Source of the DNA: an uncultured virus (IMG/VR IMGVR_UViG_3300047160_009670)
Taxonomy: Duplodnaviria > Heunggongvirae > Uroviricota > Caudoviricetes
Virus record (IMG/VR): IMGVR_UViG_3300047160_009670
Length of the DNA stretch: 64,000 bases
Reading direction: 5' to 3' (one strand)
Made by a program: the position numbers and the translations under genes. Each line of letters starts with the position of its first letter. Position 1 is the first letter of the stretch. The notes beneath the pieces are model-generated. The model was given only the letters and a program-made list of their open reading frames with translations. It was not told where the DNA came from and made no database searches. This document shows positions 1 to 64,000 of this stretch, one piece after another.

Positions 1-310
1 TGACAAGCCGGTCCTTGCGTACCCGTTCCGTTGGGCCGGCCGGCCTGCCCCGCTTCGGTCTGGTTGGCGCGATTTGCATGATAAAGGTATATCCCGCAGC
101 CCCGCCGCGTCAACCCCCCCGCCAGGGAATCCGCAGGTTTGTCAAACCCGTTTTACAAACGCGCATCCAGCCTGCGCCAAACGTCCAAAACGCCCCCCAG
201 GAGCGCCCCGGGGCGGTCGGGCCATTTGATAGGCCGTCCCGCCCGGGGCTTCCCCCAGGGGATTTACGGGCCTGTCAAGAGAACAGGCGCCCATGTCGCA
301 AACTGCAATC

Positions 311-580
311 TTAGGTAGCCGGTTCCACGCTGATGCTTCCCGTGCCGGTGGGCAGCATAACAAACCTAGCAGGTTCTTCCAGCCGCAGTTGACAGGCCGC
401 GCATTCGATCAGTTCGGAACCAGTCTCCACCAAGACCATGACGTAGGGCAGACTGGACCGTAACCATAACGCCCGGATCGTGCCCGTAACCGGTTCCCAG
501 GCCGAATCCCGGTCGGGCCGGAACCCGGTTATGCGGGCGCCGATCAGGTTCGTGGTCAAGTCATTCATCGCCAGGGTCAT
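311..580 (-). CDS. Hypothetical early protein
   Basis: ORF contiguous with the minus-strand operon. Confidence 0.55.
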   Translation of the reverse strand: MTLAMNDLTTNLIGARITGFRPDRDSAWEPVTGTIRALWLRSSLPYVMVLVETGSELIECAACQLRLEEPARFVMLPTGTGSISVEPAT

Positions 581-780
581 CCGCTGGTATCAGGTCCGGG
601 TAGGCATTGACCGCCGCGACGATCAGGGCTGCGTCGGCCGCCGTCAAGGTAACCATCCCTTCGAACGGCTGACAGTCATCTATGACGATATCGCCATTTG
701 AATCAAGGATCATAACACCGATTTCGGTTTCATGCACCCCTGGATACGCGCCAGGGCCGCGGACTGGGTTCATTGTTCAT
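561..780 (-). pseudogene. Third paralogue of the EPSPRPW small-protein family, apparently frameshifted in a G4 run
   Basis: ATG at 780 reads MNNEPSPRPWRVSRGA-stop; the C-terminal part (HETEIG...LIVAAVNAY) is in the +1 frame. Confidence 0.55.
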
Positions 781-1344
781 GTTCGCGATCCGGTAAGCGC
801 TGATACCCGTTGACCGCTGCGACGATGAATTCCCAGACATAATATTCCGGGTCTTGTGTATCTATGTTCATGACAGTAGTAAAAGACCGCCTATTCGCCG
901 CGCGAATTTCGATCCCGGGTTCCAGGTAAACCAGTTCCCATGGTCGGGGAAACCAGTCCTTCAGATGACCGTCGGGCCAGGGCCGCGGACTGGGTTCGTT
1001 CATGTTGGCGGCTCCGGTTTGGGCTTCCAGTGCGTTGGCTCTATCAGGCGGTCATAATCAGGCTCAAACCATAGGCCCGATTCGTAGAACCCTTCGATGA
1101 CTGACTTGCCGACCGCGACCAGAACATGACGGTCATCGGCCGGCAACCGGTCAGCGCAAGGAATCCAGGGCTGGTAGTCATTGACCCCATCGCGGATCAG
1201 GACTGCGTTCGCTGGAAACCCTTCGATCCCCCCGCCGTTCGTCAGGACTTCGGCTATCGGGCAACCGTTCGCATCGTATACCTTGATGTGCTTATCTTCC
1301 CACCAGTAACCATCATCAAGACGCCAGGGCCGCGGACTGGGTTC
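750..1344 (-). repeat. Three identical 22-bp repeats at the 5' ends of three tandem paralogues (750-771, 976-997, 1323-1344)
   Basis: gccagggccgcggactgggttc occurs three times and encodes EPSPRPW. Confidence 0.9.
770..1003 (-). CDS. Small early protein, EPSPRPW family
   Basis: MNEPSPRPW...FIVAAVNGY. Confidence 0.7.
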   Translation of the reverse strand: MNEPSPRPWPDGHLKDWFPRPWELVYLEPGIEIRAANRRSFTTVMNIDTQDPEYYVWEFIVAAVNGYQRLPDREHEQ

Positions 1345-1353
1345 GCCTATCAT
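1000..1353 (-). CDS. EPSPRPW-family protein with C-terminal DUF551-like domain
   Basis: WIPCADRLP..D..VLV...PTHWKPKPEPP pattern typical of DUF551. Confidence 0.75.
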   Translation of the reverse strand: MIGEPSPRPWRLDDGYWWEDKHIKVYDANGCPIAEVLTNGGGIEGFPANAVLIRDGVNDYQPWIPCADRLPADDRHVLVAVGKSVIEGFYESGLWFEPDYDRLIEPTHWKPKPEPPT

Positions 1354-2915: not shown

Positions 2916-3325
2916 GGCTGCCCCCCGCCCGGTTCGCCGAACCCGTCGATCAGCCTGCCGATTTCTTCATCGGTCGCCGGACCGATTCCGAAGACGTTGG
3001 CCCCCCCGGCCGCCGCCGCTTCTTTCAGGGCAGACCGCAGGATGCCCCCTTCCCGTTCTTGGAGCAGGGCCGCGTCCCCGTCCCGGACCCGACGCGCAAA
3101 GGTAATGATATCTTTCTTGCAATGATCCTTGAATGCAACCCAGATTTGCGACCCGCGCAGACCCAGGCGCTCCATGTCCAGGAACAGGTCCAGATGACCC
3201 GCCGGCAGGTCGGCCCTGGGACGTTCGGCCAGCATGCACAGAACCGTCGCCGCGCCGGGGTTCCCCGCGGCCAGTTGTGTCATCATCGGCTTGTAAACAT
3301 CAATGAAATCGTTCACTTCAGACAT
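2912..3325 (-). CDS. Hypothetical protein
   Basis: Globular-looking ORF with G-rich RBS. Confidence 0.65.
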   Translation of the reverse strand: MSEVNDFIDVYKPMMTQLAAGNPGAATVLCMLAERPRADLPAGHLDLFLDMERLGLRGSQIWVAFKDHCKKDIITFARRVRDGDAALLQEREGGILRSALKEAAAAGGANVFGIGPATDEEIGRLIDGFGEPGGGQP

Positions 3326-3335
3326 GATCGTCCCC

Positions 3336-3626
3336 CTAGTTAAGTGACCCCCCGCAATGCGGGCACTTCAAGACGAGCGCCCCCGATGGCGCTGGCCTGC
3401 CCAGTGGGGCCAAGGCCCGGGCCGCGTGCGGCTTGCGGGTCAAGTACCCCTTCGCTTCCATCGACCGCAGATGACGGCTAACCCCGTTCGGCGAACTAAT
3501 ATCAAAATGTTTACCGATTTCACGGGTAGTCGGCGCGTACTGATGTTCGTTTATGTAGTCTCGAATGAATGACAGAATGGATTTCTGCCGGTCCGTCAGC
3601 GTCCCTAGTTTTTGACCTGCCCGCAT
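3336..3626 (-). CDS. LexA-like winged-HTH DNA-binding protein lacking the S24 peptidase domain
   Basis: LTDRQKSILSFI...APTTREIG..FDISSPNGV..HL..MEAKGYL matches the LexA N-terminal domain; only 96 aa, ends CPHCG. Confidence 0.85.
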   Translation of the reverse strand: MRAGQKLGTLTDRQKSILSFIRDYINEHQYAPTTREIGKHFDISSPNGVSRHLRSMEAKGYLTRKPHAARALAPLGRPAPSGALVLKCPHCGGSLN

Positions 3627-3921
3627 GTGCTACCCCCTTCATCTGGCGGGGGCTTGGCCGTAGAGCGTGTGGGATCGGAAGCCCCCTTTGTCCCACGCAC
3701 AAACACAGCAACCGATCCCTGGCCAAGCCCCCATTTGTACCGTTCATTTTGTCGGGGGCTTGGGCTTGCCCCCGTAGTTCCCCATCTGCGTAGGCGCTGG
3801 CCCCGCAGCCGCCTTGCCAGCCGCCAAGGCCCCGTCCTGCCCCGCCAGGATGCTGGGCAGTGTGTCGTAGCCGGGCGCCTTCAGGATCGGCACGGGCGGC
3901 TTGCCGGGCGCCAGGGCCAGG

Positions 3922-9029: not shown

Positions 9030-9058
9030 ATTATAGGCGCCTGTCCTTCGCTTGTCAA
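9030..9058 (-). promoter_or_regulatory. Conserved early promoter
   Basis: TTGACA-17-TATAAT with GACAGGCGCC spacer. Confidence 0.9.
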
Positions 9059-9624: not shown

Positions 9625-9637
9625 CGCTTACCCCCTT

Positions 9638-10453
9638 TCAGTTGACGACGACCAGAACCCAGCCGTCGCCCCATCTGATCTTGTTGAAGTGAATCGTCCC
9701 CAGGTTAAACGTCAACGTATTGCCACAGCAATCCATGCTAATCAGATAATTCGTTTGGTAATAGTCGTCCAGGACCGTACCGTCGGGCAACGCCCCGAAC
9801 CCCGGGAATCCATGGTAACTGATGTTATCAGTTATTTTCCCGTTAGAATAGTAAAAGGTACCTTGAACCTGATTCGTTGTGAACAGTTCCCAGCGCCCAT
9901 CGATCCATTCCTTGACGACCTTCCTGGCCCGGCCGTAGGCCCCGGGGCCGATGGGCTTGCCCCCGCTGGTTAGCTGATAGATCACGGTATCCAGGCTGTT
10001 CCCCGCAGGCGTAGGCGGACGTTGATATGTTCCCGCAAAGATCGTTTCCCCGTTGGGGGCTGCGACCGCGACCGACTTGGTTGCCTTGACCAAGACCGTC
10101 GAACTGCCCGGCGATGACAGGACCGCGTTGGCGATGATCGTGTAATTGCTAGCCAGGGGAAAAATCACGTTACAGACCGGACCGTTCGGGGCCTGGGTCA
10201 GTACCCCAGACTGGCAACCGGTCTTGCCCGCGGCCCCGCAGGTATAGGACCAAGTTACCGCCGCCGGGGGCGGGCAGGTACCGGTAAAGGACATGGTAAA
10301 GGTCGTCGGTACCCCGACAATGACCGGGGTAGGACTGGCCCCCAGGGTCGCCGTACAGCCCCCCTGCGGCCAGGCTGTCGCCGCCAGCGCAAGCAGGAAC
10401 GCAACCGCGTCGGCCGCCACGATGGCTGTCCAGGTCCAACGGTAACCGTTCAT
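9638..10453 (-). CDS. Secreted beta-rich Cys-containing protein
   Basis: Signal-peptide-like N-terminus; Thr/Val beta-strand pattern, several Cys. Confidence 0.65.
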   Translation of the reverse strand: MNGYRWTWTAIVAADAVAFLLALAATAWPQGGCTATLGASPTPVIVGVPTTFTMSFTGTCPPPAAVTWSYTCGAAGKTGCQSGVLTQAPNGPVCNVIFPLASNYTIIANAVLSSPGSSTVLVKATKSVAVAAPNGETIFAGTYQRPPTPAGNSLDTVIYQLTSGGKPIGPGAYGRARKVVKEWIDGRWELFTTNQVQGTFYYSNGKITDNISYHGFPGFGALPDGTVLDDYYQTNYLISMDCCGNTLTFNLGTIHFNKIRWGDGWVLVVVN

Positions 10454-16925: not shown

Positions 16926-19900
16926 GGCTTGTCCCCTTCCGTTGCTTCAATGGCGCTGCCGGTCCCGCCGCCCGCGGCCACGCCGCGGATGGCTAGCTTG
17001 CAGGCGTCGATTTCGGCTTGCTTCTCTTCGGCAGGCCGGCGCGCTGCGGTAACGGTCATCCGGCATTCGGATGGCCGCATGATCCCCTTGTACTGGACCC
17101 AGCGACCCGGCATGTACCAGCGCTTGCGCCACGCCAGTTGCGCATACCGCAAAGTCTGCCTGCGCTCGAATATCATCATATGATCTGTGTCAAAGATGAC
17201 CCAAACCGGGTCCGCATCCCAGCGGACCCGGCAGATGTATGCGGTCGTTCCTGGCTTGGCTGTCATTGGTTCCCCCCTTCATCGTTAGCCGTCCTGGGCC
17301 GGCAGTCATGGAATTCCAGCCGGCCGTCCAGGGCTTCGCCCAGGGCTTCCAGGCTTTCAATCGGGTACGATGACCGCCGGCCCCCGCAGGTCGGGCAGGT
17401 CGTAACGAGCCGCAAGGTCCGGTCACGGTCGCCGCCGGAAAAACCGTACCAGAAATCTAACCCATCGATACGGAATTCTGCGTTAGGTCTGCGCGGCAGG
17501 CCCGTCAGTTGGATGGCGTATACGGACAGTTCGTAGTCCTGTCCGAATAGTCCCCTGATATGTTCGCATGTTTCCCGCCGCATGGAATCGGCGGCTTCCT
17601 GTTTTTCCTGTTCGTCCCGCAGGACGTTGGCGGCCCGCTGGGCCGCCAGGGCCGCGACGGCGCGTTCAGCTAAGGTCATGACTGGCCCCCTTCCCAGCCC
17701 GCCGCGGCGATTTCGTCCCGCGTGAGCCATCTACGGCCCCCGGTTTCCCCGGCAGCCGCTTCGGCGGGCGTGGACGGGCGTACGTACCAAGCGACTTCCC
17801 CGCATGCCTTGCAGCGGACCCGCCCGACTGCAAGCTTCGCATCGGCTATGTCCATCGCCGTGAATTCCTTCCCCTGGCGCCGGCAACCCCGGCGCTTGCA
17901 AACGTAAACGGTCATGGCTTGTCCCCCCTTACAGGTCTTTCAGGTCCGGGAAGTTATTGCAAACCATCTGAACGTAATGCGGATGTTCCGGCGCGTTCGG
18001 GACCGGGTAAACCCGGTCTTCGGTACCGTCGTCAAACCGGATCGGGTCGCCTTCCCCGCATAGCTTCAAAGGCTGCCCGCGGTACGGGTCAACGTCGTGG
18101 AAGAAAATCAGGCTGCCGCGATCCATGGCCCAGGGTTCGTATTTGATGACTGTCCCGCCCGGGACCGTCAGCACGTCCCCGACCATTGGGTCCAGGACGA
18201 TGGACCCGCCCGGACCGCGACTTAGCTTCCGTACCATCTGCCCGGTATACAGGCAGCAAATTTCGGCCGTTTCATGGCCTTCCAACAGGTCGTTAAATGT
18301 ACGGACCTTCATATCAAACCCCCTTCCAAGTCAGGCCCCCATCGCCCGTTCCGCGGCCACTTCCTGACGGTACAGGTCGGCGGCGCGGTCATGCCGATCC
18401 ATCAGCTTCAAAACGGCCTTGTCGGCCCGCTTGCGGTCTACAACCGCGACGACCCGTTCCCCGCCGCATTCGTAGCAGGTAACGTCATAGCAGCCGCCCA
18501 GGTAGTCTTCCGCGAAGTCGGGGTCTTCGTCAAAGTCGGCCGCGGTCAGGCCGCCAGCGTCTACGCTGGGATTGACATGCGTGCCGGCGCCGCGACAGGT
18601 CGGGCAGACCCGGTACTTGACCGGGACGCGGTATTCGCGCTCTTCGCCGTCGTCGTCTTCCAGTTCGAATACCGCTTGCATACGGGCCTTGTCTACGTGC
18701 CGTAGCAAGCTACCTTCGGCCCGATGGCCGGCCCGGACCCGGCTGTCGCCGTAGTAGTTCCGGGCGTCCATGTATGCTTGTGCGTTTGTCATGGCCTTAG
18801 CCCCTTTCTTGTCCACTTCCCTGCCATCTGTATTATAGGCGCTTGTCAAGCGAAAGTCAAGCCCTTGTCAATACAGTTCGTCCCCCGGCAGCCGGGCCTT
18901 GGTCGGCGCCGGAACCGGGAACCGGTCTACCTGGGCGCCCGCGTGGCGGTCGGCCGCGTCCCGGGCGGCTTGGTAGCGGGCCAGGATCGTTGTCAGCATG
19001 TCGGCCGTCCATGCCAGTTCGTATTGAAACGTCCCCAGGGCATCCGCCAAGGGCGCGTCGTCCGGGTAGGTCAGATCGTCCATCCGGGCGATGAACCCGC
19101 GCAGCCTGGCCAGGCTATTGGCCAAGTTGACTACATTGGTAACATCGGGTTTGTTGTTCATAGATTTACCCTTCATTCCCCGTTGCCGGGCTTGATTTCC
19201 TGCCATCCTTCCTGTTCCGCCAGCATCCGGCGCCGGGCGCCGCGCTCCGCCAGGCTGGCGAAGAAATCGTCCGCCGTCGGCGCTGGCGGGGTTACCGCCA
19301 GGCAGGTCGGGACATGCTGGCCCAGCCGCCCGGCAGGGATTTCCCTGCCGCACTGGCAAACGATGTAGACCCGATGGGGTCTACGGACGCCGGGAAGCCG
19401 GTCGCCGCGCTTGATGATTACATCCCAGAGCAAGGGAATGTCGCCAAAGCGTCCATATTCCTGGATATCTTCATCCCATACTGCTTTGTAGGCCGGAACC
19501 TTCATTCCATGAACGGTTCCTTCGGTATCCTTCGGAATGTGATTCCCGCGATACCCCAGCCGCAGGATCAACCGCGGCAGGTCAACGCGATACAGATCGT
19601 TTGTCATGGTTAAGCCCCCTTGGTTACCTTGCCCTGATAGATCAGGTACGGGTTATTGGTCTTTCGCTTGACTTCGATGCGGTCCGCGACGCGCAGGTCG
19701 AAATGAAGCCCTTGAAGTTTTTCGATCAGGTAGCCGCGCCGTACGATGGCGTAGACCTGGCCGTCCTGATCGGCCCTGACTACCCTGGCTTGCATGATTG
19801 AACCCCCCTTTCCCAAGTAGCCCGTAGGGGATTCGAACCCCTGTCGCCGGCTTGAAAGGCCGGCATCCTTCCCAGTAGACGAACGGGCCATAGTCGGGTC

Positions 19901-26962: not shown

Positions 26963-27425
26963 ATGCCGAACATCCGGTCGAGCGACCGCCGATTCTACAT
27001 CGGCCCGAAGGATCGGGATCGCATCATAGTCTTGCGCGCGCAAGGCGTTACATTTGCAGATATTGGTAGGCGATTGGGGTTTACCGCGTCGGCCGTAGGA
27101 TTCGTCTACCGGCAGGAAATGGCCAGGCGCCGCCAGTCAGGCGGCGGGGCATGAACCCGACAGGGGGCGGCCCATGGCTTTTCGCAAGCGCAAGCCCCCG
27201 CCGGAACCGCCAGGATTCGACCCGGACCGCGCCCCGCCCTGCGCGTGGTGTGGCACTGAAGCCCATATCCGCCAATGGATAAGCGGTCTGACCCTGTGCC
27301 ATGACTGCGCCGACATGCTGGGCGAAACCGAACGGTTGCTGGCCGCCAGGCTTATCTATAAATATCCGCAAATCTACAAGCGTACCCGGTTCGTCTGGGG
27401 ATGCAAGAACCTGCTAGGGGGTTAA
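26963..27425 (+). CDS. Small HTH protein (26963-27154) and zinc-finger protein (27174-27425)
   Basis: LRAQGVTFADIGRRLG; CAWCG..LCHDC. Confidence 0.6.
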
Positions 27426-27427
27426 TC

Positions 27428-29506
27428 ATGGGCGCTGCCTTGAACCGGATCATCAATGGACTGCGCCGCCTGGCCGATGACGATGAACCGTCCGTGGAAC
27501 GGTACGCCCGTGAGCCGCACCCTATCGAGAACCTGGCCAACGCGGGATATACAGTTGAAGATGCCGGCCACGGTGTGATGAAAACATATAATCAGGCCGG
27601 AACGATGGTCGGCTACAATATCCCCGGTCACGGCAAGACGTTCACAACGAAGGGTGCGGCACAGAGACAGATGACGCGGCCATCTTACGCATCACCGCCC
27701 CCGCCGCCCCGGCAACCTACGGAACGCGAGAAATGGGCGGAGGCTATGCGCCGCAATGCCGCCGAGAGACGGGTACGCAAGGCGGCAGAGGCCAAGGCGT
27801 CCAGAGAGAGAACGCGCGAAGCGTACGCGGCGGAGCAACCGGCCTATTACGATCAAGGTTCGGATATGTACTTAGAAGAACATGACTTGCCTGCCTTTGG
27901 CCTAGGCGCCCATCGGGCGCCCAAGCGCGAACGGGAACGACATGCCCGCAGCGAACAGTACGCCGCCCCGCCCCATCGGGCCGTCAAGGTCGGCGGCGGG
28001 CCGGTCCCCCAGGCCCCGCGGCATCAACTGACGCATCAGGAAGAACGTCGTAGGATCAACAAGGCATATGAAGAGAACCCGGCCGCAGTCCTGCATCCCC
28101 GGCCCGAATCGCGCATTAGCATGACGCATAGGAAGCGCGAATACGGGACTGCCAAGGGAACCCGGCGCGGCAAGCGGGCCATGGTAGGGCAGGAACATCC
28201 CCGCGCTACCCTGGCGCCGGGCATGGCTACCGAAGCAACCCCGCCCGGGCATATACCCCGATTAGGTAGGCATCTGTCCATGGAGCAGGTAGGCGCATTT
28301 GTGCCGCATCCATCTGATATCAAGAAAATGTCGCAAGAACATGCTCAAGCGCATGCACATTATCATGGCGCGCCACACTGGCAACGGTCCTGGGAAATCC
28401 AGCATAGCGCGCCTTTGGTCGGCGAAGGCCGACATACCGCCCGGCATGTCACGACCGGCCTGCCGTACAAGGGGGCGCATACGGGCCAGACCCCGCTACA
28501 TCATGGCAGCGGCGGGCATGGGTACCGCGAAACCATCGAATACGAACCGCGCGCCCAGCATGGATCGACCATTCCCGGCGAACCCAGCCGCCCGGTAGGA
28601 CTGGAAGCCAGGCGCAAGCGCGAGAAGATTGCCGGCGAACATGCGCCGGCAGTGCGCGAAACCGGCCGGCAGGCCCATCGGGCCGTCAGCCATCTGCATA
28701 CCGTGGAACCCAGGCGGGTCCGCGACCAGTACCGCTACGCGGCGGAAGGGGAACCGTCCTATACAGTTCAACATATGGACCGAAGCGGTACAGGCGAATC
28801 AGGCGAATGGCGCAAGGGGCAAACCTATCAAGGCGTTCCCCATAGCCAGGTCGGCAAACATATCAAGGCGGCCAAGAAGCGCGGCGCCGGGGTTATCATC
28901 AGCGATCCATCAGGTAAACAGGTCTTCCCGCATCATTTCGGGCGGTATGCCGCCGAAGGGGCGCCGCGCGAACGGTATGCCCGCGGCATGAGCCTGGGCG
29001 ATTGGTCAAGGAAACATCAAATCGACATACAGGAAGACAGGGGCCTGCATCCCCATCCTGACGCCCGGATCGTCCGGGCGCCTTATGGTCCTGCATCGCG
29101 CGACCTGTATCGCCTGAACGATTATATGATTGCAAATATTTCTGGGGATACCCATCGCTTGATTCCGCGGCCGGCCAAGACCAAGGAACGTCATGCTGGC
29201 GGCGGCCGCCGGGGTCAGCGTCAATGGTCATCGGAACTTGAAGTCATGCATAACAGTCCATTCTACCGACGCCAGGCAGGATACGGCGCGACCGAAATGG
29301 GGGGCGGGGAAGACCTGAAACCGGCCCCGCATCTGGGCCAGGGATGGGGCCAGCGCAAGATCATCGGCGGAATCGTTAAACATTACGATCCTAACGGGCA
29401 ATTCCATAGCTATGGGATTCCCAACGAACGCATCGCCTTCGAACGGCCCGAACACGCCCGTGCCGAACTGTCCCGCCGTCGGCGCATGGCGCGGGTGGAT
29501 ATGTAA
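27428..29506 (+). CDS. Basic modular polyprotein 1 (putative internal virion protein)
   Basis: RBS GGGGG before ATG 27428; at least eight ERYA/EAYA/EQYA/ERHA/RYA motifs separating short modules. Confidence 0.75.
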   Translation: MGAALNRIINGLRRLADDDEPSVERYAREPHPIENLANAGYTVEDAGHGVMKTYNQAGTMVGYNIPGHGKTFTTKGAAQRQMTRPSYASPPPPPRQPTEREKWAEAMRRNAAERRVRKAAEAKASRERTREAYAAEQPAYYDQGSDMYLEEHDLPAFGLGAHRAPKRERERHARSEQYAAPPHRAVKVGGGPVPQAPRHQLTHQEERRRINKAYEENPAAVLHPRPESRISMTHRKREYGTAKGTRRGKRAMVGQEHPRATLAPGMATEATPPGHIPRLGRHLSMEQVGAFVPHPSDIKKMSQEHAQAHAHYHGAPHWQRSWEIQHSAPLVGEGRHTARHVTTGLPYKGAHTGQTPLHHGSGGHGYRETIEYEPRAQHGSTIPGEPSRPVGLEARRKREKIAGEHAPAVRETGRQAHRAVSHLHTVEPRRVRDQYRYAAEGEPSYTVQHMDRSGTGESGEWRKGQTYQGVPHSQVGKHIKAAKKRGAGVIISDPSGKQVFPHHFGRYAAEGAPRERYARGMSLGDWSRKHQIDIQEDRGLHPHPDARIVRAPYGPASRDLYRLNDYMIANISGDTHRLIPRPAKTKERHAGGGRRGQRQWSSELEVMHNSPFYRRQAGYGATEMGGGEDLKPAPHLGQGWGQRKIIGGIVKHYDPNGQFHSYGIPNERIAFERPEHARAELSRRRRMARVDM

Positions 29507-31723: not shown

Positions 31724-32191
31724 ATGTCGGACCATCCGGCCTGGGTACCGACCTTTCTGGAACTGATCCGCAAGACAGGGAACGTCAGCAAGGCGGCGAC
31801 CCGCGCGGGGATTGATCGCGGTACAGCCTACTACCATGCCAGCCGGTCCAAGGAATTCGCGGCGGCATGGGCGGAAGCGGACCAGACCCATATCGACAAC
31901 CTGGAAGAACTGGGCCTACTGCGGGCCAAGTACGGCCGCAGGCGCACGGTTCTCAACGATGAAGGGCAAGAAGTAGTTATACATGATAAGCCATCAGATA
32001 GGCTTATGGAATTCTTCCTGAAAGGGAACCGGCCGGAAAAGTATGGGAACATCCGCGAACTGGAAGAAATCGCCCGCCGAATATGCAGAGAGGAAATGGG
32101 GCGACCGCTACCCGATGATGGCCCGGGCGATCCGCCCGGCCATCGCGGCCGAAACGGCGGCCAAGGCGGCGGCCGCACAAATGGACCCTAA
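31724..32191 (+). CDS. terS: Terminase small subunit
   Basis: FLELIRKTGNVSKAA..AGI.R...Y...F..AW..A...D.LE and SDRLMEFFLK..RPEKY; directly before TerL. Confidence 0.85.
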   Translation: MSDHPAWVPTFLELIRKTGNVSKAATRAGIDRGTAYYHASRSKEFAAAWAEADQTHIDNLEELGLLRAKYGRRRTVLNDEGQEVVIHDKPSDRLMEFFLKGNRPEKYGNIRELEEIARRICREEMGRPLPDDGPGDPPGHRGRNGGQGGGRTNGP

Positions 32192-33875
32192 TAACAAATA
32201 CCTATACGATCCGGTCGCGTTCGCAAAGGACGAACTGGGCATCGACCTGTGGAGAGAACAGGCCGACATTGCCCGGTCGCTGTGCGTCTTCCCCCATCGC
32301 GTCATTGCCCGGACCGCGAATTCGGTCGGCAAGTCGATCACGGCCGCTTGCGTAGCCATCTGGTTCTACCGGACCCGGCCCCGTGGGCAGGTCATCATCA
32401 CGGCGCCCAAGGCAACGCAGGTTGATGATATCATATTCAAGGAAATCCGCCGACTTTACAAATGGGCGGGCGTCTATCCCAAGGCGTCCCGGATCGAAGA
32501 TGTTCCGGGCCATCTGCTTTACGGGTTCACGGCCCGGTCCGAAGCCCATTTCCAGGGTGAACATGAACCGCATACTTTAATCATATTTGATGAAGCTGTA
32601 GGTATTGATGAACAGTTCTGGACCGCGGCCCGCGGCATCCTGTCGGCGGGCATTGAATCCATGTGGCTGGTCCTGGAAAACCCGACCGACCCGTCCAGCT
32701 ATGCCTATGAAGATGAATTGCGCGGCGGATGGGATGTTCATGCGATAAGTGGGTTCAGGCATCCCAATATCGCCGCGGAACTGGATGACAAGCCGGCGCC
32801 CATCCCCGAAGCCCTGCGCCTGGGACAGCATACGCTCAACATGGGGGACTGGGGCGACTGGCTGGAACATGACGATGAAGCCGGGCCGGGGGACATTGAC
32901 ATACTGGACCCGACCCTGTACGGCCTGGAAGCGCTGACGCCCCTACAGGTCGAGCGCGCCGGCCTGATCTTCCCGTCCCGCTACTGGCGCCCCGGACCCG
33001 ACGGCGAAGCCCGCGTCCTGGGACGGTTCCCCAGCCAGGCCGCCTACAGCGTCTTTGCGGAAGCCGCGTTCGACCGGGCATTCGCGTCCAAGATGCTGCC
33101 CCTGCCGAGCGATGGACCGGTCATAGGCTGCGACGTGGCCCGCATGGGCGACGATGCGACCGCCATCCATGTGCGCCGGGGTAACGTATCATTGGAACAT
33201 AGGACTTACCGTAAACAAGATACGCTTGCTACTGCGAACACATTAAAGGAACTATGTCATAAGTGGGGACCGAAGTTCAATGTCTGGCCGCATCTGGTAC
33301 CTTGCCTTATTGACGATGATGGCGTTGGCGGGGGCGTGGTTGACAACCGCGTATCGACAGCGGGGCCGGCCGATATCGCGGCGGGGCGGGAATGGGGGCG
33401 GGCCTACAACTTCATACCGATCCGGGCAAGTACCCTACCCAGGCGGCCGGAACGGTATCCTAATGTAAGATCAGAATTACTTTTTGATCTTGCGGAACGC
33501 ATGGCGAACGGCCTGATTTCGCTGGCCGGCCTGCCGCGGGATACCATGCTGGAACTAAGGCGCCAGGCCATCGGGATTACCTACAATCTTGATGCGGCCG
33601 GCCGCCGGGTAGCGGAACCGAAAGACGCGATGAAGTCCCGGCTGGGCCGCTCGCCCGATGACCTGGACGCGATGGCGCTCTGCTACTACACGCCGACCGA
33701 AGCCCCGCCGGTCTTCGAACCGGTCCTGTCCGAACGCCCCAATCTGTGGCGCGGCGAAACATCGACCGCCGGCCTGCAAATGATGTTCGCGGAACCGCGG
33801 CGCCATCGTCCCGATGACCTGGACGATATGAGCGCATTTAAGCGCGGTAATGGATGGAACTTCCGCGGGGGCTAA
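32043..33875 (+). CDS. terL: Terminase large subunit (true start probably 32116-32181)
   Basis: Walker A ANSVGKS, Walker B IIFDEA, nuclease GCDVARMGDD, IDDDGVGGGV, SPDDLDA. Confidence 0.92.
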   Translation: MGTSANWKKSPAEYAERKWGDRYPMMARAIRPAIAAETAAKAAAAQMDPNNKYLYDPVAFAKDELGIDLWREQADIARSLCVFPHRVIARTANSVGKSITAACVAIWFYRTRPRGQVIITAPKATQVDDIIFKEIRRLYKWAGVYPKASRIEDVPGHLLYGFTARSEAHFQGEHEPHTLIIFDEAVGIDEQFWTAARGILSAGIESMWLVLENPTDPSSYAYEDELRGGWDVHAISGFRHPNIAAELDDKPAPIPEALRLGQHTLNMGDWGDWLEHDDEAGPGDIDILDPTLYGLEALTPLQVERAGLIFPSRYWRPGPDGEARVLGRFPSQAAYSVFAEAAFDRAFASKMLPLPSDGPVIGCDVARMGDDATAIHVRRGNVSLEHRTYRKQDTLATANTLKELCHKWGPKFNVWPHLVPCLIDDDGVGGGVVDNRVSTAGPADIAAGREWGRAYNFIPIRASTLPRRPERYPNVRSELLFDLAERMANGLISLAGLPRDTMLELRRQAIGITYNLDAAGRRVAEPKDAMKSRLGRSPDDLDAMALCYYTPTEAPPVFEPVLSERPNLWRGETSTAGLQMMFAEPRRHRPDDLDDMSAFKRGNGWNFRGG

Positions 33876-38172: not shown

Positions 38173-39987
38173 ATGAAAGATGAAGATATCGATTACCAGC
38201 GGGAACCGACCCGCGGCCAGTCCGCCTTGTACGGCATGGCCAAGATCGTCGAGCAGGTTGCATCCGCCCTGCCCGGCGATGCCGCCAGGGAATTGACCGA
38301 CGGGTTCAAACGCAAGGCGCGCGAATTTGATGATATTCTTGACCAATGGGTCATCCAGCCGCAATCGACCTGGGCGGCTCAGTGGAACACGATTTCCCGG
38401 ACGTTCCGCAGCTATTCCGATGCGGCGCTCAAGGACAACTGGATTTCGGCGATTGCCTTCCGCAATGACCCGTCCATCGACAGGCATATGCAAAGGCGCA
38501 AGGACCCGGTCAGTACCCTGGACTGGGAAATTGAAAGCGACGATGAAGACGACAAGGACCAAAAGGAAATATGTAAACAAGTAGGTCAAATCGTCAAACA
38601 GACCCCCTACTTCATCAACATCAAGAACTGGTTAGGCGAAGCGATATGGGGCGGCCGGTCGGCGGTCCAGTTGATGTATACCCGGAAGATGATTGCCGGA
38701 CGGCGGCGGGTCGTCGTCAAGAAATTCATTCCCATATCTTGCGACAAAGTCATATGGAAATGGGACGGTACGCCCGGCATATTGGTCTACATGCCCGCGA
38801 CCGTTCCCGCGAACCAGTATTCCAAGAGCCTGGAACAGCTAGCGGACCGCGGGCCTTGCCTGTTCCTGTACGACCGCTTCGACCGGATGCAGTATGTCAT
38901 CCATACATTTCAACCATCCGATTCCGACTACCTGTACCAAGGGGACTTCGCGGCGGCCATCTACGGCTACGGGCTGCGCGGCAGGCTGTACCATTGCTGG
39001 TGGACACGGACGGAACTGCTTTCATGGGTCATGAACGCCCTGCAACGCCTGGCCATCAACGGTATGCTGATCGGGTTCTACGATTCGGGGGATGACGCGG
39101 CGAAGGCGGCAGTCAAGCAGTGTCTTTTGAACATCAAAGACTTTGCTTTTGGGTTGATGCCCAGGCGTCCGGGGCAAGTAGACCCAACAAGCATGATTCA
39201 TAACATACCGCCACAAACAGTTGGATATCCTGTTCTGAAAGAATGGATCGACTACTTCGATACGCTTGCTGAAGAAGTTATCCTTGGACGCATTGATAAC
39301 TACGGGGTCACGGGGGATGCGGCCCTGGAACTGGTTACCAGTGCCCAGTTCCTGCGGTTGAAGTCCGATTCATCGGCCCTGGACGATACGCTGACGGCGC
39401 AGTTCCTTGGTCCCTTGCTGCGGATGAACGAATTCGTCTACCGCGGGCGGCGCTACCGGGGAAACGAATTACCATTTCAAATCAGGTACAAATCGGTACT
39501 TGATACCGAAAACGTCCTGAAGAAATTGCAGTCAGCCCAGCTACTTAACGGCATGGGCGCGCAACTGGACGAAAAACATCTGCTACGAATTGCCGGATTC
39601 AAGCGACCCGAAAAGCCGGATGATGTTCTGGGCTACAAGGCCAAGCAAGCCGAACTGGCGATGCAGGCGCAGGCCGAACAGGAAGCTGCCCAGGCTCAGG
39701 CAGCGGCCCAAGGCGGGGCCGGGATGGAACCTGGCATGGAAGGACCGCCCGCAGGCGCGGAAGGCATGGCGCCCGCGCAGAACGGCCCTGGCATGGCCCC
39801 GGGACCGGCCCTGTCGGGCAGCATCGCGGCCAGGCCCGATACCTACACGCATGAAGGGGAAGGCGCCCCGCCCCCGCGCCTGGAACGGGAACGGTACGCG
39901 GCCAGCGCGTACCATGCTCCGATAACCAATCGGATCGCGCGGTTACTGAATGGACGCGGTAAAGAAACCACCAATGGTCATAAGTAA
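38173..39987 (+). CDS. Portal protein (Mu gp29/DUF935-like)
   Basis: DP.I...M..RK.PV..LDW.I, EAIWGG.S...L.Y, G.GL...LY..WW motifs; position and size. Confidence 0.8.
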   Translation: MKDEDIDYQREPTRGQSALYGMAKIVEQVASALPGDAARELTDGFKRKAREFDDILDQWVIQPQSTWAAQWNTISRTFRSYSDAALKDNWISAIAFRNDPSIDRHMQRRKDPVSTLDWEIESDDEDDKDQKEICKQVGQIVKQTPYFINIKNWLGEAIWGGRSAVQLMYTRKMIAGRRRVVVKKFIPISCDKVIWKWDGTPGILVYMPATVPANQYSKSLEQLADRGPCLFLYDRFDRMQYVIHTFQPSDSDYLYQGDFAAAIYGYGLRGRLYHCWWTRTELLSWVMNALQRLAINGMLIGFYDSGDDAAKAAVKQCLLNIKDFAFGLMPRRPGQVDPTSMIHNIPPQTVGYPVLKEWIDYFDTLAEEVILGRIDNYGVTGDAALELVTSAQFLRLKSDSSALDDTLTAQFLGPLLRMNEFVYRGRRYRGNELPFQIRYKSVLDTENVLKKLQSAQLLNGMGAQLDEKHLLRIAGFKRPEKPDDVLGYKAKQAELAMQAQAEQEAAQAQAAAQGGAGMEPGMEGPPAGAEGMAPAQNGPGMAPGPALSGSIAARPDTYTHEGEGAPPPRLERERYAASAYHAPITNRIARLLNGRGKETTNGHK

Positions 39988-44313: not shown

Positions 44314-44342
44314 ATTATAGGCGCTTGTCCAGCGCTTGTCAA
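44314..44342 (-). promoter_or_regulatory. Conserved early promoter
   Basis: TTGACA-AGCGCTGGACAAGCGCC-TATAAT. Confidence 0.9.
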
Positions 44343-47440: not shown

Positions 47441-47444
47441 GCCG

Positions 47445-47672
47445 ATGCCCCATCTACCGGGCATGCGGAACCGGGTCTTCTTCGGCCGGCATACGCCGAA
47501 CTGGAAAGCCGAAAAAGGGGCCGACCGCGCCGCCAATGACGATGACGATGCGGAACCGACCGCAGACCAGTTAGAAGCATTGGTCATCATACTTGGATTT
47601 GACCCGGACGAACTGGAAGACGAAGCCGAACCGGAAGAAACCGACGATGCCCAGGATACGGGAAACGATTGA
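47445..47672 (+). CDS. Small acidic protein after the TopIB polyprotein
   Basis: D/E-rich with LGFDP core. Confidence 0.6.
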   Translation: MPHLPGMRNRVFFGRHTPNWKAEKGADRAANDDDDAEPTADQLEALVIILGFDPDELEDEAEPEETDDAQDTGND

Positions 47673-61236: not shown

Positions 61237-61260
61237 CCCGAAGGCGGCGGGCCATGTCCT

Positions 61261-63300
61261 ATGTCCATGCTGGTCGCTGGCGTGCCGGTCTTGATGCCGA
61301 CGCCGCAGTTAGTTGCGCTTATAAGAAACCATATGGATGCGCGAATGGCGCATCCGTTCTACCGCCGGGCCTGGCCGGGGGCCGGGTCGGTCTGCCTGGG
61401 GTACCCGCTACAGCATAGGCCGATCCCGCCCGTTGAAGTCGGCCGCATCTACTGGCGGGGCACGAACGCCAGCGAATTTTCCTACGGCTACTTGCTGGCC
61501 AGCGGGTCACAAACCAGCCAGATTGCGGCGCAGGCGTTCAAGTCGTTCACGTCGTCGGGCGGCGGCGCCAGTTCCGACCTGAACCCGATAACAATTGTCA
61601 TCAGGTCCGAAGGGGTACGCAGCGCTGAAACTGTAACGCTTCAAACGATGTACTTGCTGCCGCCGACGCCCTTGGCGCAGGCGCTCAAGACGGACGGATC
61701 GGCAGCGCAAGACATAAACGGGCTTTACCTGCTAACGGTAGTCGATCCCCGCTTTTACTGGTGGAACTTTCCCTGCCCCGCCCTGAACATCACGTCGTCA
61801 ACGTCCTGGCAAACCGTACTTAGTAACATCAGCGCATCTTTGGGGATCAACAATCCCCCCCTGACCTGGGACGAACCGGACCCGACCTTACTGTTTCCGC
61901 ATAATGCCCTGAACCAGTTGCAGGGGGAACCGATCCCGCTGGTTCTTGATACCATTCTGTATAACATTCAAGCGCGCTTGGTTGCGACGACCGACGGCAA
62001 TTACCATCTGGAAGGACAGGAAACAGCGTACGCGAATCGAACCCTGGACGATGAAGGCGGGACCAAACGCAGCTACCATGCGGGCGGCAACATCATCCCC
62101 AAGGGGCCGGGCTGGGGCAACAAGAACATTCCGCCCCTGCAAGCGATCCTGCCGCAAGCGGTTGAATTCCATTTCCGGCCCAAGCTATGCCATCCATCGA
62201 CTACCGACGCGCAGAACGTCACGCCCGTAACGTACATCGTCAAGGAACCGATTACCAATTTCGATGCGCAGTACATCGGCCATCCTGGGGCCAAGCTGTT
62301 CCGCGACCTGTGTACCGCGTCATTTACCGGCGGGCAGCAACAACCAGATAATTATACCCAGTTATTGGCGCTGGTTAATGGATTCGTCGAAGAATGGATT
62401 GAATGGAACAATTCCGTATGGTATGATCGTATCTACAATGGTATTGTCAATTTCCTACCGGAAGGGTTCAACGATACCGTCGAATGGACCTACCGGCTGC
62501 GGGATTACCAGAATGCGGGCGAAGACCCGTTCCCGTCGATGGGGACGAGCGCCAGCCCCGATCCAGACAAGCGCAAAGATGAAAATGATGAATGGGGCGA
62601 ATATGAAATAACGACCCGTGCGTACACGAAAGCATACAATTGGGAACCTGAACAGCTACATCATCTGGGAACCGATTGCCAGATCGGGGCATGCGGGCCG
62701 CCCCAGCGCCGGAATCCCCAGAAAGGCGGCGCAACCCTTGTCTGCCAGACCCTGTACGAACCGGCCATCTGCGGCAACCCGGGGGCCTTGGTCAATACCG
62801 GGCTGTCGTCGTGCTGCGTCCTGGAATGCTGCAAGTCAACCAGTCAGTCATCGTCGGGCGGCGGCTGCGACCCGCGCTGCCAGATTTGCGGGGTCTTCCT
62901 GTGCCCGATTTCCGTCATCGTCAACTGCCTGCGCGGCGGAACGCAACCTTGCTGCCCGGGCCTGGGCCTTTGCTGCGGTCCGCTCAATGATGTATACATC
63001 ATGTATTGTTCCAATCCTGACGCAAACGGACATTGCGATTGCGTCAGTCATCAGACCCATGTTCCCAATACCGCGGTCATGAACTGGTCCAATTCCCTGG
63101 GCGGCTATGTCTTTACCGTGACCAATGGATGTACGACCGCAACCTTCCTGCCGGATACGACCCAGGCGCCTTGCGCTGCGGGGGTAGGATGTACTTCAAC
63201 GGGGTATATTATGATGCTGCGTACTGATCCAACAAATCCGAACGATATCTGTTTGCCCGGATGCCAGGCGGGCGTCGCGATTGCGCAGGTCAAATGCTAG
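61261..63300 (+). CDS. Tail protein with Cys-rich C-terminus
   Basis: More than 20 Cys in the last ~215 aa. Confidence 0.6.
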   Translation: MSMLVAGVPVLMPTPQLVALIRNHMDARMAHPFYRRAWPGAGSVCLGYPLQHRPIPPVEVGRIYWRGTNASEFSYGYLLASGSQTSQIAAQAFKSFTSSGGGASSDLNPITIVIRSEGVRSAETVTLQTMYLLPPTPLAQALKTDGSAAQDINGLYLLTVVDPRFYWWNFPCPALNITSSTSWQTVLSNISASLGINNPPLTWDEPDPTLLFPHNALNQLQGEPIPLVLDTILYNIQARLVATTDGNYHLEGQETAYANRTLDDEGGTKRSYHAGGNIIPKGPGWGNKNIPPLQAILPQAVEFHFRPKLCHPSTTDAQNVTPVTYIVKEPITNFDAQYIGHPGAKLFRDLCTASFTGGQQQPDNYTQLLALVNGFVEEWIEWNNSVWYDRIYNGIVNFLPEGFNDTVEWTYRLRDYQNAGEDPFPSMGTSASPDPDKRKDENDEWGEYEITTRAYTKAYNWEPEQLHHLGTDCQIGACGPPQRRNPQKGGATLVCQTLYEPAICGNPGALVNTGLSSCCVLECCKSTSQSSSGGGCDPRCQICGVFLCPISVIVNCLRGGTQPCCPGLGLCCGPLNDVYIMYCSNPDANGHCDCVSHQTHVPNTAVMNWSNSLGGYVFTVTNGCTTATFLPDTTQAPCAAGVGCTSTGYIMMLRTDPTNPNDICLPGCQAGVAIAQVKC

Positions 63301-63305
63301 AAACC

Positions 63306-64000
63306 ATGGCCGAACCCATAGCGGAACCGCCGCCGCCCATACCGCCCTGCATCTGTACCCCGGAACAGGCTGCGGTATGGTGTCCACGTTGGCGCCGACC
63401 CATTCCCGGCGCTTTCTATGAAACATGCCGGAATACCTGCCTGGGATGCTACATCCCGGGCAAGCGCGAATCGCTGATTCGTAACTGGGGCTGGGAAGCC
63501 GAAGCCGCCGAACGCAAGGCGGCCGCCCAGTTCGAAACCCCGGGGTTCTTCGCCAAGGTCGGTCATCTGGCCCGGGCCATGGGGGGATGGGCCAAGGAAC
63601 GGTTCCGGGTTACAACGGAAGCGGGCATGGCCGAACGACGGGCCATCTGCAACCCATGCGAACATCGTGATCCTATCAAGGATGAATGTAAGCTATGCGG
63701 CTGCCATCTGTCGGGTCTCATTCTGAACAAGCTGCGGGTCGCGACCGAAGCCTGCCCCGTCGGCAAATGGGGGCCTGAACCGGAAACCCCGGAATCCAAG
63801 GTCGAAGACCTGCCCGACGATGCCGACCTGCGCATCGCCGCCCCCGACCTGCGGGGCGCGACCATGCCCCCGCGGGTTCCGGGCCTGTTTACCGCCGACA
63901 TGCGGCCGGTCCTACTGACAGGCCATTTCCGGGGAACCGATGCCTGGATTCTGGGACGCGGGCCATCCCTGCGCCATATGGACCTGTCGTTCCTGAAGGA
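63306..64000 (+). CDS. Cys-rich DUF6171-like domain followed by a glycosyltransferase-like domain (truncated by window end; not in ORF track)
   Basis: MAEPIAEP...RRAICNPC...ECKLCGC...K....EACPVGKW; then AWILGRGPSL. Confidence 0.65.
   Translation, partial: MAEPIAEPPPPIPPCICTPEQAAVWCPRWRRPIPGAFYETCRNTCLGCYIPGKRESLIRNWGWEAEAAERKAAAQFETPGFFAKVGHLARAMGGWAKERFRVTTEAGMAERRAICNPCEHRDPIKDECKLCGCHLSGLILNKLRVATEACPVGKWGPEPETPESKVEDLPDDADLRIAAPDLRGATMPPRVPGLFTADMRPVLLTGHFRGTDAWILGRGPSLRHMDLSFLK

Follow-up and report, generated by a model that had tools for sequence, protein, structure and literature searches.

About nine in ten copies of the trinucleotides GAG/CTC and CAC/GTG are absent from a 64,000-nt (64 kb) stretch of DNA, referred to here as the window, which is part of a novel tailed phage of ~91 kb present in many soil metagenomes (Table 1). 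The purge operates at the level of DNA and of the whole word. It has rewritten the choice of Glu, His, Val and Leu codons, the context of stop codons and the Shine-Dalgarno word, and is accompanied by a phage-borne tRNA-Glu (UUC). We give roughly even chances to the explanation that natural selection acted on the words themselves (G-W-G on either strand) and was imposed by host enzymes reading 3–4 nt.

In the window, which has a GC content of 62%, initial observed/expected ratios (o/e) were calculated from base composition. The four words occur at 0.06 (CTC, 74 observed vs 1217 expected), 0.13 (GAG, 140 vs 1118), 0.14 (CAC, 183 vs 1268) and 0.18 (GTG, 196 vs 1073), the next-lowest trinucleotide being ACT at 0.48. 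The control words GAC, GTC, CAG and CTG lie between 0.98 and 1.16 and are as common as the first-pass annotation had stated. Among S-W-S words only those with equal ends are depleted (GAC and CAG ~1.0; GCG 1.13 and GGG 1.02). After dinucleotide (Markov-1) correction with both strands summed, GAG/CTC still stands at 214 vs 1574 expected (z = −46.3) and CAC/GTG at 379 vs 1807 (z = −46.2). The depletion is uniform along the window, with all 32 two-kb bins affected and 11–35 sites of the four words pooled per bin. That annotation had reported strong avoidance on both strands from hand counts of about one site in 4201–4500, none in 38521–38760 and about one in 48961–49230. The recount gives 1, 0 and 1 against 22.6, 14.9 and 19.5 expected from composition, and the avoidance itself holds across the window. 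It could have vanished after codon or dinucleotide correction, and persisted under both the Markov-1 model and synonymous shuffles.

Table 1. Features of the window discussed in the text
Feature	Position	Strand	Remarks
G-W-G/C-W-C purge (GAG, GTG, CTC, CAC)	1..64000	.	593 sites left vs ~4676 expected from base composition
Residual-word hot spot, second and weaker	3150..3900	.	18 in 600 bp
Rewritten ribosome-binding site AAAGGGGGT replacing a GGAGG-type site	9625..9646	-	upstream of gene 9055-9624; among the 45 GGGG-type sites
tRNA-Glu, anticodon UUC, phage-borne	19817..19889	-	73 nt; reads purge-forced GAA codons
Residual-word hot spot	27150..28050	.	23 in 600 bp vs 5.6 at the window's own rate
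Terminase large subunit	32043..33875	+	marks a tailed phage; handle for collecting relatives
Mu-type portal protein	38173..39987	+	own protein cluster on contigs up to 91,412 bp

The pressure at DNA level that had been proposed from strand symmetry is borne out by several features. The depletion is equal in size on the sense and antisense strands, and sense-strand words are depleted equally strongly at codon offsets 0, 1 and 2. Intergenic DNA (8014 nt) contains 68 copies of the four words vs 567 of the four control words. In 200 synonymous-codon shuffles preserving amino acids and codon usage, off-frame counts were 4–12 times below expectation (e.g., GAG 15 and 28 vs 111 and 145), and words at offset 1 reached 0.14–0.27 of the shuffled expectation, like those at other offsets. 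Since the freely changeable base is the third, middle or first letter across offsets 0, 1 and 2, any letter of the word gets changed. For both words, depletion is at least 2.5-fold in each of the 16 3′-dinucleotide contexts and in every 5′ context, the least depleted 5-mers containing them still being 2.5–3 times down, with a strength graded by the 3′ neighbor of the word. The unit of depletion is the 3-mer, shorter than the usual site of 4–8 specified bases. The words show two marks of target-word avoidance, namely rarity relative to a Markov model and depletion on both strands, in all frames and in non-coding DNA.

The consequences reach far into the coding and translation signals of the phage. 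Glu is encoded by GAA in 966 of 1026 codons (94%) and His by CAT in 362 of 409 (89%), much as noticed earlier, in contrast to Lys (AAG 75%) and Gln (CAG 65%). G is the last letter of 35% of codons but of none of those before the 45 TGA stops, and Trp follows a G-ending codon in only 19 of 326 cases. Even the protein sequence is affected: dipeptides of Met or Trp followed by Trp or Cys, where GTG is unavoidable, are three times too rare (7 vs 21.3 ± 4.5; 0 of 2000 shuffles as low). Ribosome-binding sites had been described as AAGGGGG rather than AAGGAGG, and upstream of the 87 called genes GGGG is present in 45 and AAGGGG in 25, with GGAG in two and GAGG in one. Per 10 kb, AAGGAG occurs 0.2 times in the window vs 0–8.4 in 20 related loci, and AAGGGG 14.4 times vs 0–9.6. 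Going by established knowledge of the anti-Shine-Dalgarno sequence, the rewritten word is probably read through G·U wobble. The tRNA-Glu (UUC) gene itself contains none of the four words, compared to 5.4 expected from its own composition.

The 593 residual words correspond to about one per 108 bp, so that protection can only be quantitative. As many as 514 of the 521 residual coding words could be removed synonymously, which points to a balance between mutation and selection, each word costing little, and not to an all-or-none escape. Scaled selection estimated from codon ratios is ~3.4–3.9 for GAG and 2.4–3.0 for CAC. The local residual densities of GAG/CTC and CAC/GTG are uncorrelated (rho 0.11, p 0.38). 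The stronger of the two residual-word hot spots lies at the 5′ end of a 692-aa gene with no function assigned.

The window is real sequence, as indicated by matches in soil runs. Six soil runs contain 98–100% of the words sampled from the 7,958-base stretch 32043–40000. In four other soil runs (2019), short contigs match positions 28001–48000; among the pieces listed, 31 of 32 are identical and one carries one difference. Relatives were collected as 218 loci around related terminase genes, comprising 138 viral or metagenome loci (≥3 kb) and 80 loci from bacterial genomes. The viral and metagenome loci have a median o/e of 0.92 for GAG and 0.82 for CAC, with no CAC value below 0.44, while the minimum among the bacterial loci is 0.37 for GAG and 0.52 for CAC. 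The double purge is found in none of the 138 and none of the 80, a sample that does not knowingly include the host. Three unrelated phage contigs lose GAG/CTC and keep CAC/GTG. Across the sampled loci, the purge does not appear to be a family or host-lineage trait. Armatimonadota account for nine of the 15 best terminase matches and for nine of the 80 genome loci.

Further words are missing from the same DNA. Sixteen six-base restriction-type words with at least 30 expected copies are present at no more than 12% of expectation; 11 are palindromes (e.g., GGGCCC, 0 of 76 expected) and five are asymmetric, namely CAGCAG (2/41), ACCAGG (1/55), GACATC (1/44), ACCAAC (2/34) and CAGAAG (5/48). Interrupted palindromes are missing as well (e.g., GACN4GTC, 0/49). 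Some longer words that contain one of the trinucleotides fall below the 3-mer level (GAGTC 0/12.5, CCTC 15/78, GGTGA 5/35), and we take these three to be type IIS sites. A scan of the window revealed no strongly depleted 4- or 5-mer lacking the four words. The strongest depletions in a scan of 27,360 word pairs included no asymmetric bipartite 3+N+3 word; sites of the 3+4 and 4+4 types are invisible to such a scan.

As to the origin of the pressure, we infer that the responsible agent is a host defence. In the proposed mechanism, the host would have one or two anti-phage enzymes that read only 3–4 nt, the damage scaling approximately with how many words the phage DNA contains. The cost per word would then be small; mutation would keep making words and selection would remove them, almost always via synonymous or codon-pair changes. 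The candidate reader that we rank highest would be a base-modifying or nicking defence of the toxin type, with 3–4-nt specificity on single or double strands, of which the DarT family is the nearest described example. The candidate ranked second is an adenine-methylation-guided restriction or exclusion system with a module reading G-A-G or C-A-C. It is somewhat more probable that GAG/CTC and CAC/GTG each have a reader of their own than that one G-W-G reader recognizes both, the latter being disfavored by the three contigs with loss of GAG/CTC only and by the uncorrelated residual densities. A G-N-G reader should have lowered GCG and GGG too, and neither is depleted. Even tiny costs, whatever their source, would produce this pattern in large phage populations, and the effect size therefore does not identify the agent. 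We know of no described defence that reads exactly GAG or CAC. No DNA methyltransferase was recognized among the ORFs of the window (64 kb of the ~91-kb phage), and a scan of 89 ORFs there gave no NADAR or macro domain; the remaining ~27 kb could still code for an antidote or a modification enzyme. A bolder version, possible though doubtful, is that an undescribed but widespread class of anti-phage enzymes recognizes words of just three letters, with GAG/CTC as the target in many phages and CAC/GTG as a further target in this one. Such an enzyme, maybe a DarT1-like guanine ADP-ribosyltransferase or another modifier of bases on exposed strands, would do harm in proportion to word count, and some phages would reply with a genome-wide purge that rewrites codons, Shine-Dalgarno words and tRNA content.

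Type I, IIG and III restriction and BREX systems read 4–8 specified bases. The first-pass annotation had inferred an escape from host systems and named these as the source. The escape fits the 16 lost six-base words and the lack of a methyltransferase in the window, but the named culprits do not agree with a bare 3-mer purged in every flank or with the 593 sites left for an all-or-none endonuclease to cut. An unlikely variant holds that the 3-mer depletion is the sum over many 5–8-nt sites of type I, IIG/IIS, III and BREX-like systems in the host population that share a GAG or CAC core. The genome does avoid the five asymmetric 6-mers, which are of the type read by such systems, as well as GAGTC, CCTC and GGTGA beyond the 3-mer level, and both words have a central adenine, which is common in the half-sites of adenine-methylating systems. 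On the other hand, it would take dozens of distinct longer sites to deplete every context at least 2.5-fold, and the 4- and 5-mers without the words give no sign of a general abundance of short asymmetric sites. The bipartite words, within the reach of that scan, also weigh against this variant. Moreover, phage avoidance of asymmetric type I/IIG/III sites is not uniform, according to the available part of a 2026 preprint citing earlier surveys (10.64898/2026.09.23.753747). A phage whose composition or codon usage mirrors that of a host with the same signature is a quite improbable source of the pattern. The first-pass annotation had allowed for such a host signature, which is absent from the sampled relatives and candidate host lineages, the host not being knowingly among them. 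Phages often resemble their hosts in oligonucleotide usage, but codon matching leaves the off-frame and intergenic depletion unexplained, and none of the bacterial loci, Armatimonadota included, carries the signature. Phage tRNAs are usually read as a sign that phage codon usage differs from that of the host, and the tRNA-Glu (UUC) accordingly suggests a GAA-heavy usage unlike the host's. Likewise, a wobble-pairing ribosome-binding word would be unexpected if the host used the canonical word freely.

Erosion of CRISPR PAMs, with GAG and CAC or their complements as host type I PAMs worn away by escape mutation, is more improbable again. PAMs of 2–4 nt, effective on either strand and at a small cost each, would fit the graded balance, yet no PAM set was matched to GAG plus CAC. 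AAG and TTC, PAMs of well-studied type I systems, are enriched in the window, published PAM depletion in phages is weak, and 401 Armatimonadota genomes revealed no spacer-like match to 20 kb of the phage. A CpG-like mutational hot spot, in which a marked or hypermutable base decays without selection on the word, is hardly credible. Transition products are indeed in excess under Markov-1 (CTT/AAG 1.40, CAT/ATG 1.21, TTC/GAA 1.37, TAC/GTA 1.54), but so are transversion products, CAG/CTG most of all (1.59) and GAC/GTC as well (1.35). Words at offset 1, where both S letters are non-synonymous and only the middle W is free, are depleted as strongly as the others, and the adjustment extends to codon pairs, stop-codon context and ribosome-binding sites. 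The excess is thus not confined to transitions, and depletion is not weaker where the protein code holds the mutable base, as methylation-driven decay would have it. Least probable of all is that the phage's own enzyme, a frequent nickase or an ADP-ribosyltransferase (ART) domain, attacks host DNA at the words while the phage is spared by lacking them. A 1018-aa polyvalent protein with an ART-PolyVal domain (E = 6e-18) and a type IB topoisomerase domain could supply such an enzyme, and the ORFs of the window offer no methyltransferase for chemical self-protection. Against this, the words left would still expose the phage to attack, the ART domain has no sequence link to DarT or any solved structure, and its single-sequence model is unusable (mean pLDDT 35.6).

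Motif avoidance is the oldest known phage counter-defence and is understood for sites of 4–8 bases; the purge of GAG/CTC and CAC/GTG extends it to bare 3-nt words. A double-stranded DNA phage pays for this with a codon each for Glu and His, with the canonical ribosome-binding word and with some dipeptides. So large a price for two 3-nt words suggests a selective agent that reads much shorter sequences than do the restriction systems commonly invoked. GAG/CTC and CAC/GTG together offer a handle on this agent, since word purges across phage collections can be set against host defence repertoires and recoded DNA against candidate systems. Host prediction from codon usage and k-mers would be misled by such genomes, and engineered phages or plasmids for such hosts may need the same purge.

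Several known systems resemble the selective purge of 3-nt words in part. CpG suppression in vertebrates and their viruses, due to methyl-cytosine decay or an RNA-binding sensor, also depletes a very short word genome-wide with visible effects on codon choice, but decay of one base does not sit well with the offset-1 test and the transversion products in the window. In single-stranded RNA phages, the trinucleotide ACA is under-represented (relative frequency 0.59–0.92 in nine reference genomes, mean 0.83 in 57), which the available text of the source attributes to the RNase MazF (PMC12151602). As described there, phage genomes are short of a trinucleotide that a toxin-type defence enzyme reads, the reader in our case being a candidate; that effect is weak and concerns one strand of RNA, whereas the present one concerns both strands of double-stranded DNA at o/e 0.06–0.18. 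M.EcoGIX and M.BceJIII are single-strand adenine methyltransferases specific for SAY, which modify partially, handicap M13 replication and, in the portion of the source at hand, serve plasmids as anti-restriction rather than hosts as defence (PMC7736820). They share with our words the length of 3 nt and a central adenine beside C or G, but SAY as given there comprises CAC, CAT, GAC and GAT, not GAG, and GAC is not depleted here.

DarTG is an anti-phage defence with ADP-ribosyltransferases acting on single-stranded DNA, whose lesions block replication (PMC11543638; PMC11825919), so that harm should grow with the number of sites. In the accessible text, DarT2 reads TNTC, while Escherichia coli DarT1 modifies G, favored by two G spaced by one base, and no consensus motif was found for it (PMC11543638). 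The 3–4-nt motif with like first and third bases recalls our words, and GAG and GTG fit G-N-G; unlike what the DarT1 preference reported there implies, GCG and GGG are retained here. The escapes from DarTG described in the available parts of these sources are antidote enzymes and none proceeds by motif loss (PMC11543638; PMC11825919). Restriction-site avoidance likewise removes target words from both strands of phage DNA. Its classical form, which is directed mostly at palindromic type II sites as far as the preprint text goes (10.64898/2026.09.23.753747), is seen here for the 11 six-base palindromes and for several interrupted palindromes. In contrast, the words purged here are non-palindromic, 3 nt long and ~85–94% removed in balance with mutation, and purging them has altered codon usage, ribosome-binding sites and even the frequency of some dipeptides.

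The trinucleotides GAG, CTC, CAC and GTG are strongly depleted throughout the window. The first-pass annotation had counted 1, 0 and 1 sites by hand in three short segments, and these counts proved exact, against 22.6, 14.9 and 19.5 expected. Over the whole window, the observed/expected ratios (o/e) derived from base composition are 0.06 for CTC, 0.13 for GAG, 0.14 for CAC and 0.18 for GTG. Of the other 60 trinucleotides none falls below 0.48, and the control words GAC, GTC, CAG and CTG lie at 0.98–1.16. After dinucleotide correction, with both strands summed, GAG/CTC occurs 214 times versus 1574 expected and CAC/GTG 379 times versus 1807 expected (z about −46 for either pair), and the depletion is found in all 32 of the two-kb bins. 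Among trinucleotides with equal first and last letters, only GAG, GTG, CTC and CAC are depleted; GCG (o/e 1.13) and GGG (1.02) are not, and the values of AGA (0.69) and ACA (0.72) are accounted for by dinucleotides. The purged words are compactly described as G-W-G on either strand. All flanking contexts are depleted, to an unequal degree: with the 3' neighbor included, o/e is 0.01 for GAGT, 0.02 for GAGG, 0.13 for GAGA and 0.19 for GAGC, and 0.04 for CACC, 0.10 for CACT, 0.20 for CACA and 0.30 for CACG. The mildest 5-mer depletions are seen at GAGAA (0.39), GAGCG (0.33) and CACGN (about 0.3). On the plus strand of the first 34 kb, CTC (0.04) is scarcer than GAG (0.14–0.21) independently of gene orientation, an asymmetry that is absent from 44 to 64 kb.

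The target of the pressure is the DNA word rather than the codon. All four words are scarce at each codon offset of the sense strand, and the 8014 nt of intergenic DNA hold 68 copies of the four purged words versus 567 of the four control words. When synonymous codons were shuffled among positions in 200 rounds, keeping proteins and codon usage, off-frame words turned out to be 4–12 times fewer in the window than the shuffles predict (for off-frame CTC, 21 and 15 versus 86 and 187). In frame, Glu is encoded by GAA in 966 of 1026 codons and His by CAT in 362 of 409, GTG makes up 9% of Val codons and CTC 4% of Leu codons, whereas the comparison families favor G or C (Lys AAG 75%, Gln CAG 65%, Tyr TAC 71%). 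None of the 45 TGA stops follows a G-ending codon, though 35% of codons end in G, and Trp follows such a codon in only 19 of 326 cases. Met or Trp followed by Trp or Cys are the only dipeptides unable to avoid GTG; they occur 7 times versus 21.3 ± 4.5, a number as low as this being reached in 0 of 2000 within-protein shuffles, and the reverse-order control gives 14. The pressure therefore extends to protein sequence.

Translation signals are likewise rewritten. Upstream of the 87 genes, GGGG was found 45 times and AAGGGG 25 times, GGAG twice and GAGG once. AAGGAG occurs 0.2 times per 10 kb in the window versus 0–8.4 in 20 related loci, and AAGGGG 14.4 times versus 0–9.6. From what is known of the anti-Shine-Dalgarno sequence, GGGGG should still pair with it via one G·U wobble. 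The tRNA-Glu gene contains none of the four words, against 5.4 expected.

In total, 593 copies of the four words remain in the window. A synonymous change creating no new word would suffice to remove 514 of the 521 residual words within genes; therefore, protein constraint is not what keeps them. They reflect an equilibrium between mutation and selection, for which scaled selection, estimated from codon ratios relative to neighboring two-codon families, amounts to about 3.4–3.9 for GAG and 2.4–3.0 for CAC. The residual words are over-dispersed, with two hot spots (see the table), and the local residual densities of GAG/CTC and CAC/GTG are uncorrelated (rho 0.11).

Features of the window, with positions in nucleotides
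Feature	Position	Strand	Remarks
Residual-word hot spot	3150-3900		
SbcC-like ATPase	3922-5508		
RecE/YqaJ-type exonuclease	7158-8084		
Class I methyltransferase-like protein	15954-16925	-	
Tandem repeats	25851-26249		63 + 78 nt (93-98% matches), within 310-aa ORF 25791-26723
Residual-word hot spot	27150-28050		23 in 600 bp versus 5.6
Terminase large subunit	32043-33875		
CCCGAA hexamer repeat	37214-37263		8 copies, in a small gene
Mu-type portal	38173-39987		
Kinase-domain protein	39988-41361	+	457 aa, directly 3' of portal; PI3/PI4-kinase or HipA-like kinase domain (E 4e-8)
Polyvalent protein	44384-47440	+	1018 aa; ART-PolyVal ADP-ribosyltransferase and type IB topoisomerase domains
tRNA-Glu			Anticodon UUC, 73 nt; sole RNA gene of the window

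The window, 64 kb with an even GC content of 62% (0.59–0.66 along its length), is phage DNA. A simple caller of our own yielded 87 genes covering 87% of it, with minus-strand genes in the first 24 kb or so and mostly plus-strand genes thereafter, and many of the small genes have no family assignment. The kinase-domain protein downstream of the portal, which also shows weak matches to candidate defense families, may be a packaged or early kinase. No DNA match to the window was found by megablast in 50,697 phage records; in the same collection the portal has no tblastn match and the terminase only matches of at most 25% identity. Portal homologues were not found in viral and metagenome contigs, and querying viral contigs with the two nearest terminase homologues (62 and 54% identity) gave no match either. 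In a set of 5.8 billion proteins the portal has only three homologues, one being the window's own cluster, found on contigs as long as 91,412 bp. Judged by these comparisons, the phage is new. An exhaustive protein search with the SbcC-like ATPase returned 7634 distant relatives, which have no bearing on the purge.

All 24 listed sequencing runs containing the 7,958-base stretch 32043–40000 are labeled soil metagenome, and 98–100% of the words sampled from this stretch were recovered in six soil runs. Short contigs matching the 20-kb stretch 28001–48000 are present in four other soil runs, dated 2019 and belonging to different studies; among the matching pieces listed, 31 of 32 are identical and one carries a single difference. 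Because matching data occur in several soil runs and studies, the window sequence is not the artefact of a single assembly.

The window has also been rid outright of classical restriction-type words. Observed versus expected counts are 0/76 for GGGCCC, 0/30 for GGATCC, 0/27 for TCCGGA, 0/25 for GTCGAC, 0/22 for GACGTC, 0/21 for CAGCTG, 0/19 for CTGCAG, 0/16 for TGATCA, 1/36 for CGATCG and 1/18 for AGGCCT, and, among degenerate or interrupted words, 1/62 for RGATCY, 0/49 for GACN4GTC, 4/117 for GGGNCCC and 0/20 for GCTNAGC. Five asymmetric 6-mers (CAGCAG, ACCAGG, GACATC, ACCAAC and CAGAAG) are lost as well. Since many palindromes are left intact (e.g., GAATTC with 44 copies, CCGCGG with 106, CCCGGG with 74), the avoidance is specific and not a dislike of palindromes in general. 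No 4- or 5-mer of the window lacking an internal G-W-G is strongly depleted. GATC is common, with 235 sites, but never in the form of AGATCT, GGATCC or TGATCA and only once as CGATCG; CGATCC/GGATCG is enriched 1.8-fold. The flanks of GATC are thus precisely sorted. Six-base palindrome avoidance of a generic kind is common among the collected relatives' loci (those below 8 kb left out) and therefore provides no host fingerprint.

Neither a DNA methyltransferase nor an anti-restriction protein turned up in a scan of 89 window ORFs, and NADAR domains and macrodomains were likewise missing. Within these 64 kb the phage appears to rely on the absence of the words. The class I methyltransferase-like protein carries a SAM-type loop rich in glycine. 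Its match to a PHROG "methyltransferase" family is joined by weak ones to models of spermidine synthase and of a defense-system methyltransferase. On inspection, its translation lacks the (D/N/S)PP(Y/F) motif of DNA amino-methyltransferases, which makes methylation of adenine or N4-cytosine in DNA by this protein improbable. For the ART domain of the polyvalent protein, sequence searches gave no solved relative, relaxed Pfam thresholds no link to DarT, and single-sequence modeling an unusable structure (mean pLDDT 35.6). CCCTT, the word of type IB topoisomerases, is not enriched in the window (187 versus 193).

Loci around terminase relatives were collected from viral contigs (80, at most 39% identity) and metagenomes (80, at most 41%), of which 138 of the 160, each at least 3 kb long, were kept, and from bacterial and archaeal genomes (a further 80, at most 41%). 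Median o/e in the 138 loci is 0.92 for GAG (5th percentile 0.57) and 0.82 for CAC (minimum 0.44), the genome loci reach minima of 0.37 and 0.52, respectively, and depletion of both word pairs is absent from all 138 and 80 loci at this terminase identity of at most 41%. Three viral and metagenome contigs from other phages (L069, L112 and L145; 39–50% GC) are depleted of GAG/CTC down to 0.08–0.21, on both strands, in all contexts and evenly along 5–21 kb, with normal CAC/GTG (0.98–1.30); a purge of GAG/CTC only therefore recurs in unrelated phages. L112 shares 66% terminase identity with an Enterococcus phage, and three cultured or named phages whose terminases are related to that of L112 show no GAG depletion. 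L112 and L145 are also without GATC, GGCC, CTAG, CTGCAG and CTGAAG. Another trinucleotide-level anomaly, of a different direction, is seen in a 67% GC metagenome contig of 17.5 kb (CAG/CTG 0.26, CAC/GTG 0.44, GAG/CTC enriched at 2.09, GCCGGC 0/35). Armatimonadota MAGs (Chthonomonadales, Fimbriimonadaceae), whose DNA is normal, supply nine of the 15 best genome matches, a weak hint, from terminase similarity, at this phylum as host. A 20-kb phage query against 401 Armatimonadota genomes gave only low-complexity matches to the CCCGAA repeat, which is a trap in similarity searches because it draws many unrelated contig and genome matches. One 32-nt match at 94% in these genomes was rejected as a spacer, lying outside any repeat array.

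The best fit, to which we give about an even chance, is selection imposed by the host through readers of short words. There would be one or two such readers, each recognizing 3–4 nt and doing more harm the more words are present, so that a single word costs little; two are favored over one because some contigs are purged of GAG/CTC only and because the two word pairs do not covary locally. For a classical endonuclease recognizing nothing but the 3-mer, 593 sites would still be available to cut. That the depletion is the shadow of many longer sites is doubtful, as dozens of distinct specificities would be required to cover every context.

It is less probable that the phage mirrors its host, which leaves the off-frame and intergenic depletion unexplained except where selection of this kind on words acts on the host too. 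That the phage encodes a tRNA-Glu(UUC) moreover suggests a mismatch with host usage. Lower still in probability comes erosion of PAMs, and below it mutational decay from a hot spot at one base. The latter is unlikely, given that transversion products show the largest excesses (CAG/CTG 1.59, GAC/GTC 1.35), that words at offset 1, where both S letters are non-synonymous, are depleted like the others, and that whichever of the three letters is free gets changed. Self-immunity to a weapon of the phage's own is the least probable of these readings.

Avoidance of target words is an already known phenomenon. New here, for 64 kb of a phage of about 91 kb and with relatives' DNA at no more than 41% terminase identity, are how short the word is, how deep the purge goes (tenfold deeper than in the published ACA case) and the visible rewriting of translation signals. 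Full-text searches, in a literature consisting mostly of journals outside subscription, gave no report of phages purged of GAG/CTC or CAC/GTG, and no enzyme specific for GAG or CAC among the trinucleotide motifs of the methylome literature. Enzymes of the kind proposed here have been described. DarT2 acts on single strands, where it ADP-ribosylates thymidine within TNTC, and E. coli DarT1 modifies guanosine, favoring two G spaced by one base, although it showed no consensus (PMC11543638). Lesions of the DarT type block replication and are countered by phages with NADAR enzymes (PMC11825919). Plasmid methyltransferases partially modify adenine in SAY on single strands, by which M13 is handicapped (PMC7736820), and MazF, which cuts at ACA, has been associated with a slight under-representation of ACA in RNA phages (relative frequency 0.59–0.92; PMC12151602). 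None of these enzymes reads GAG or CAC as such, and a reader of G-N-G should also deplete GCG and GGG, both of which are undepleted in the window.
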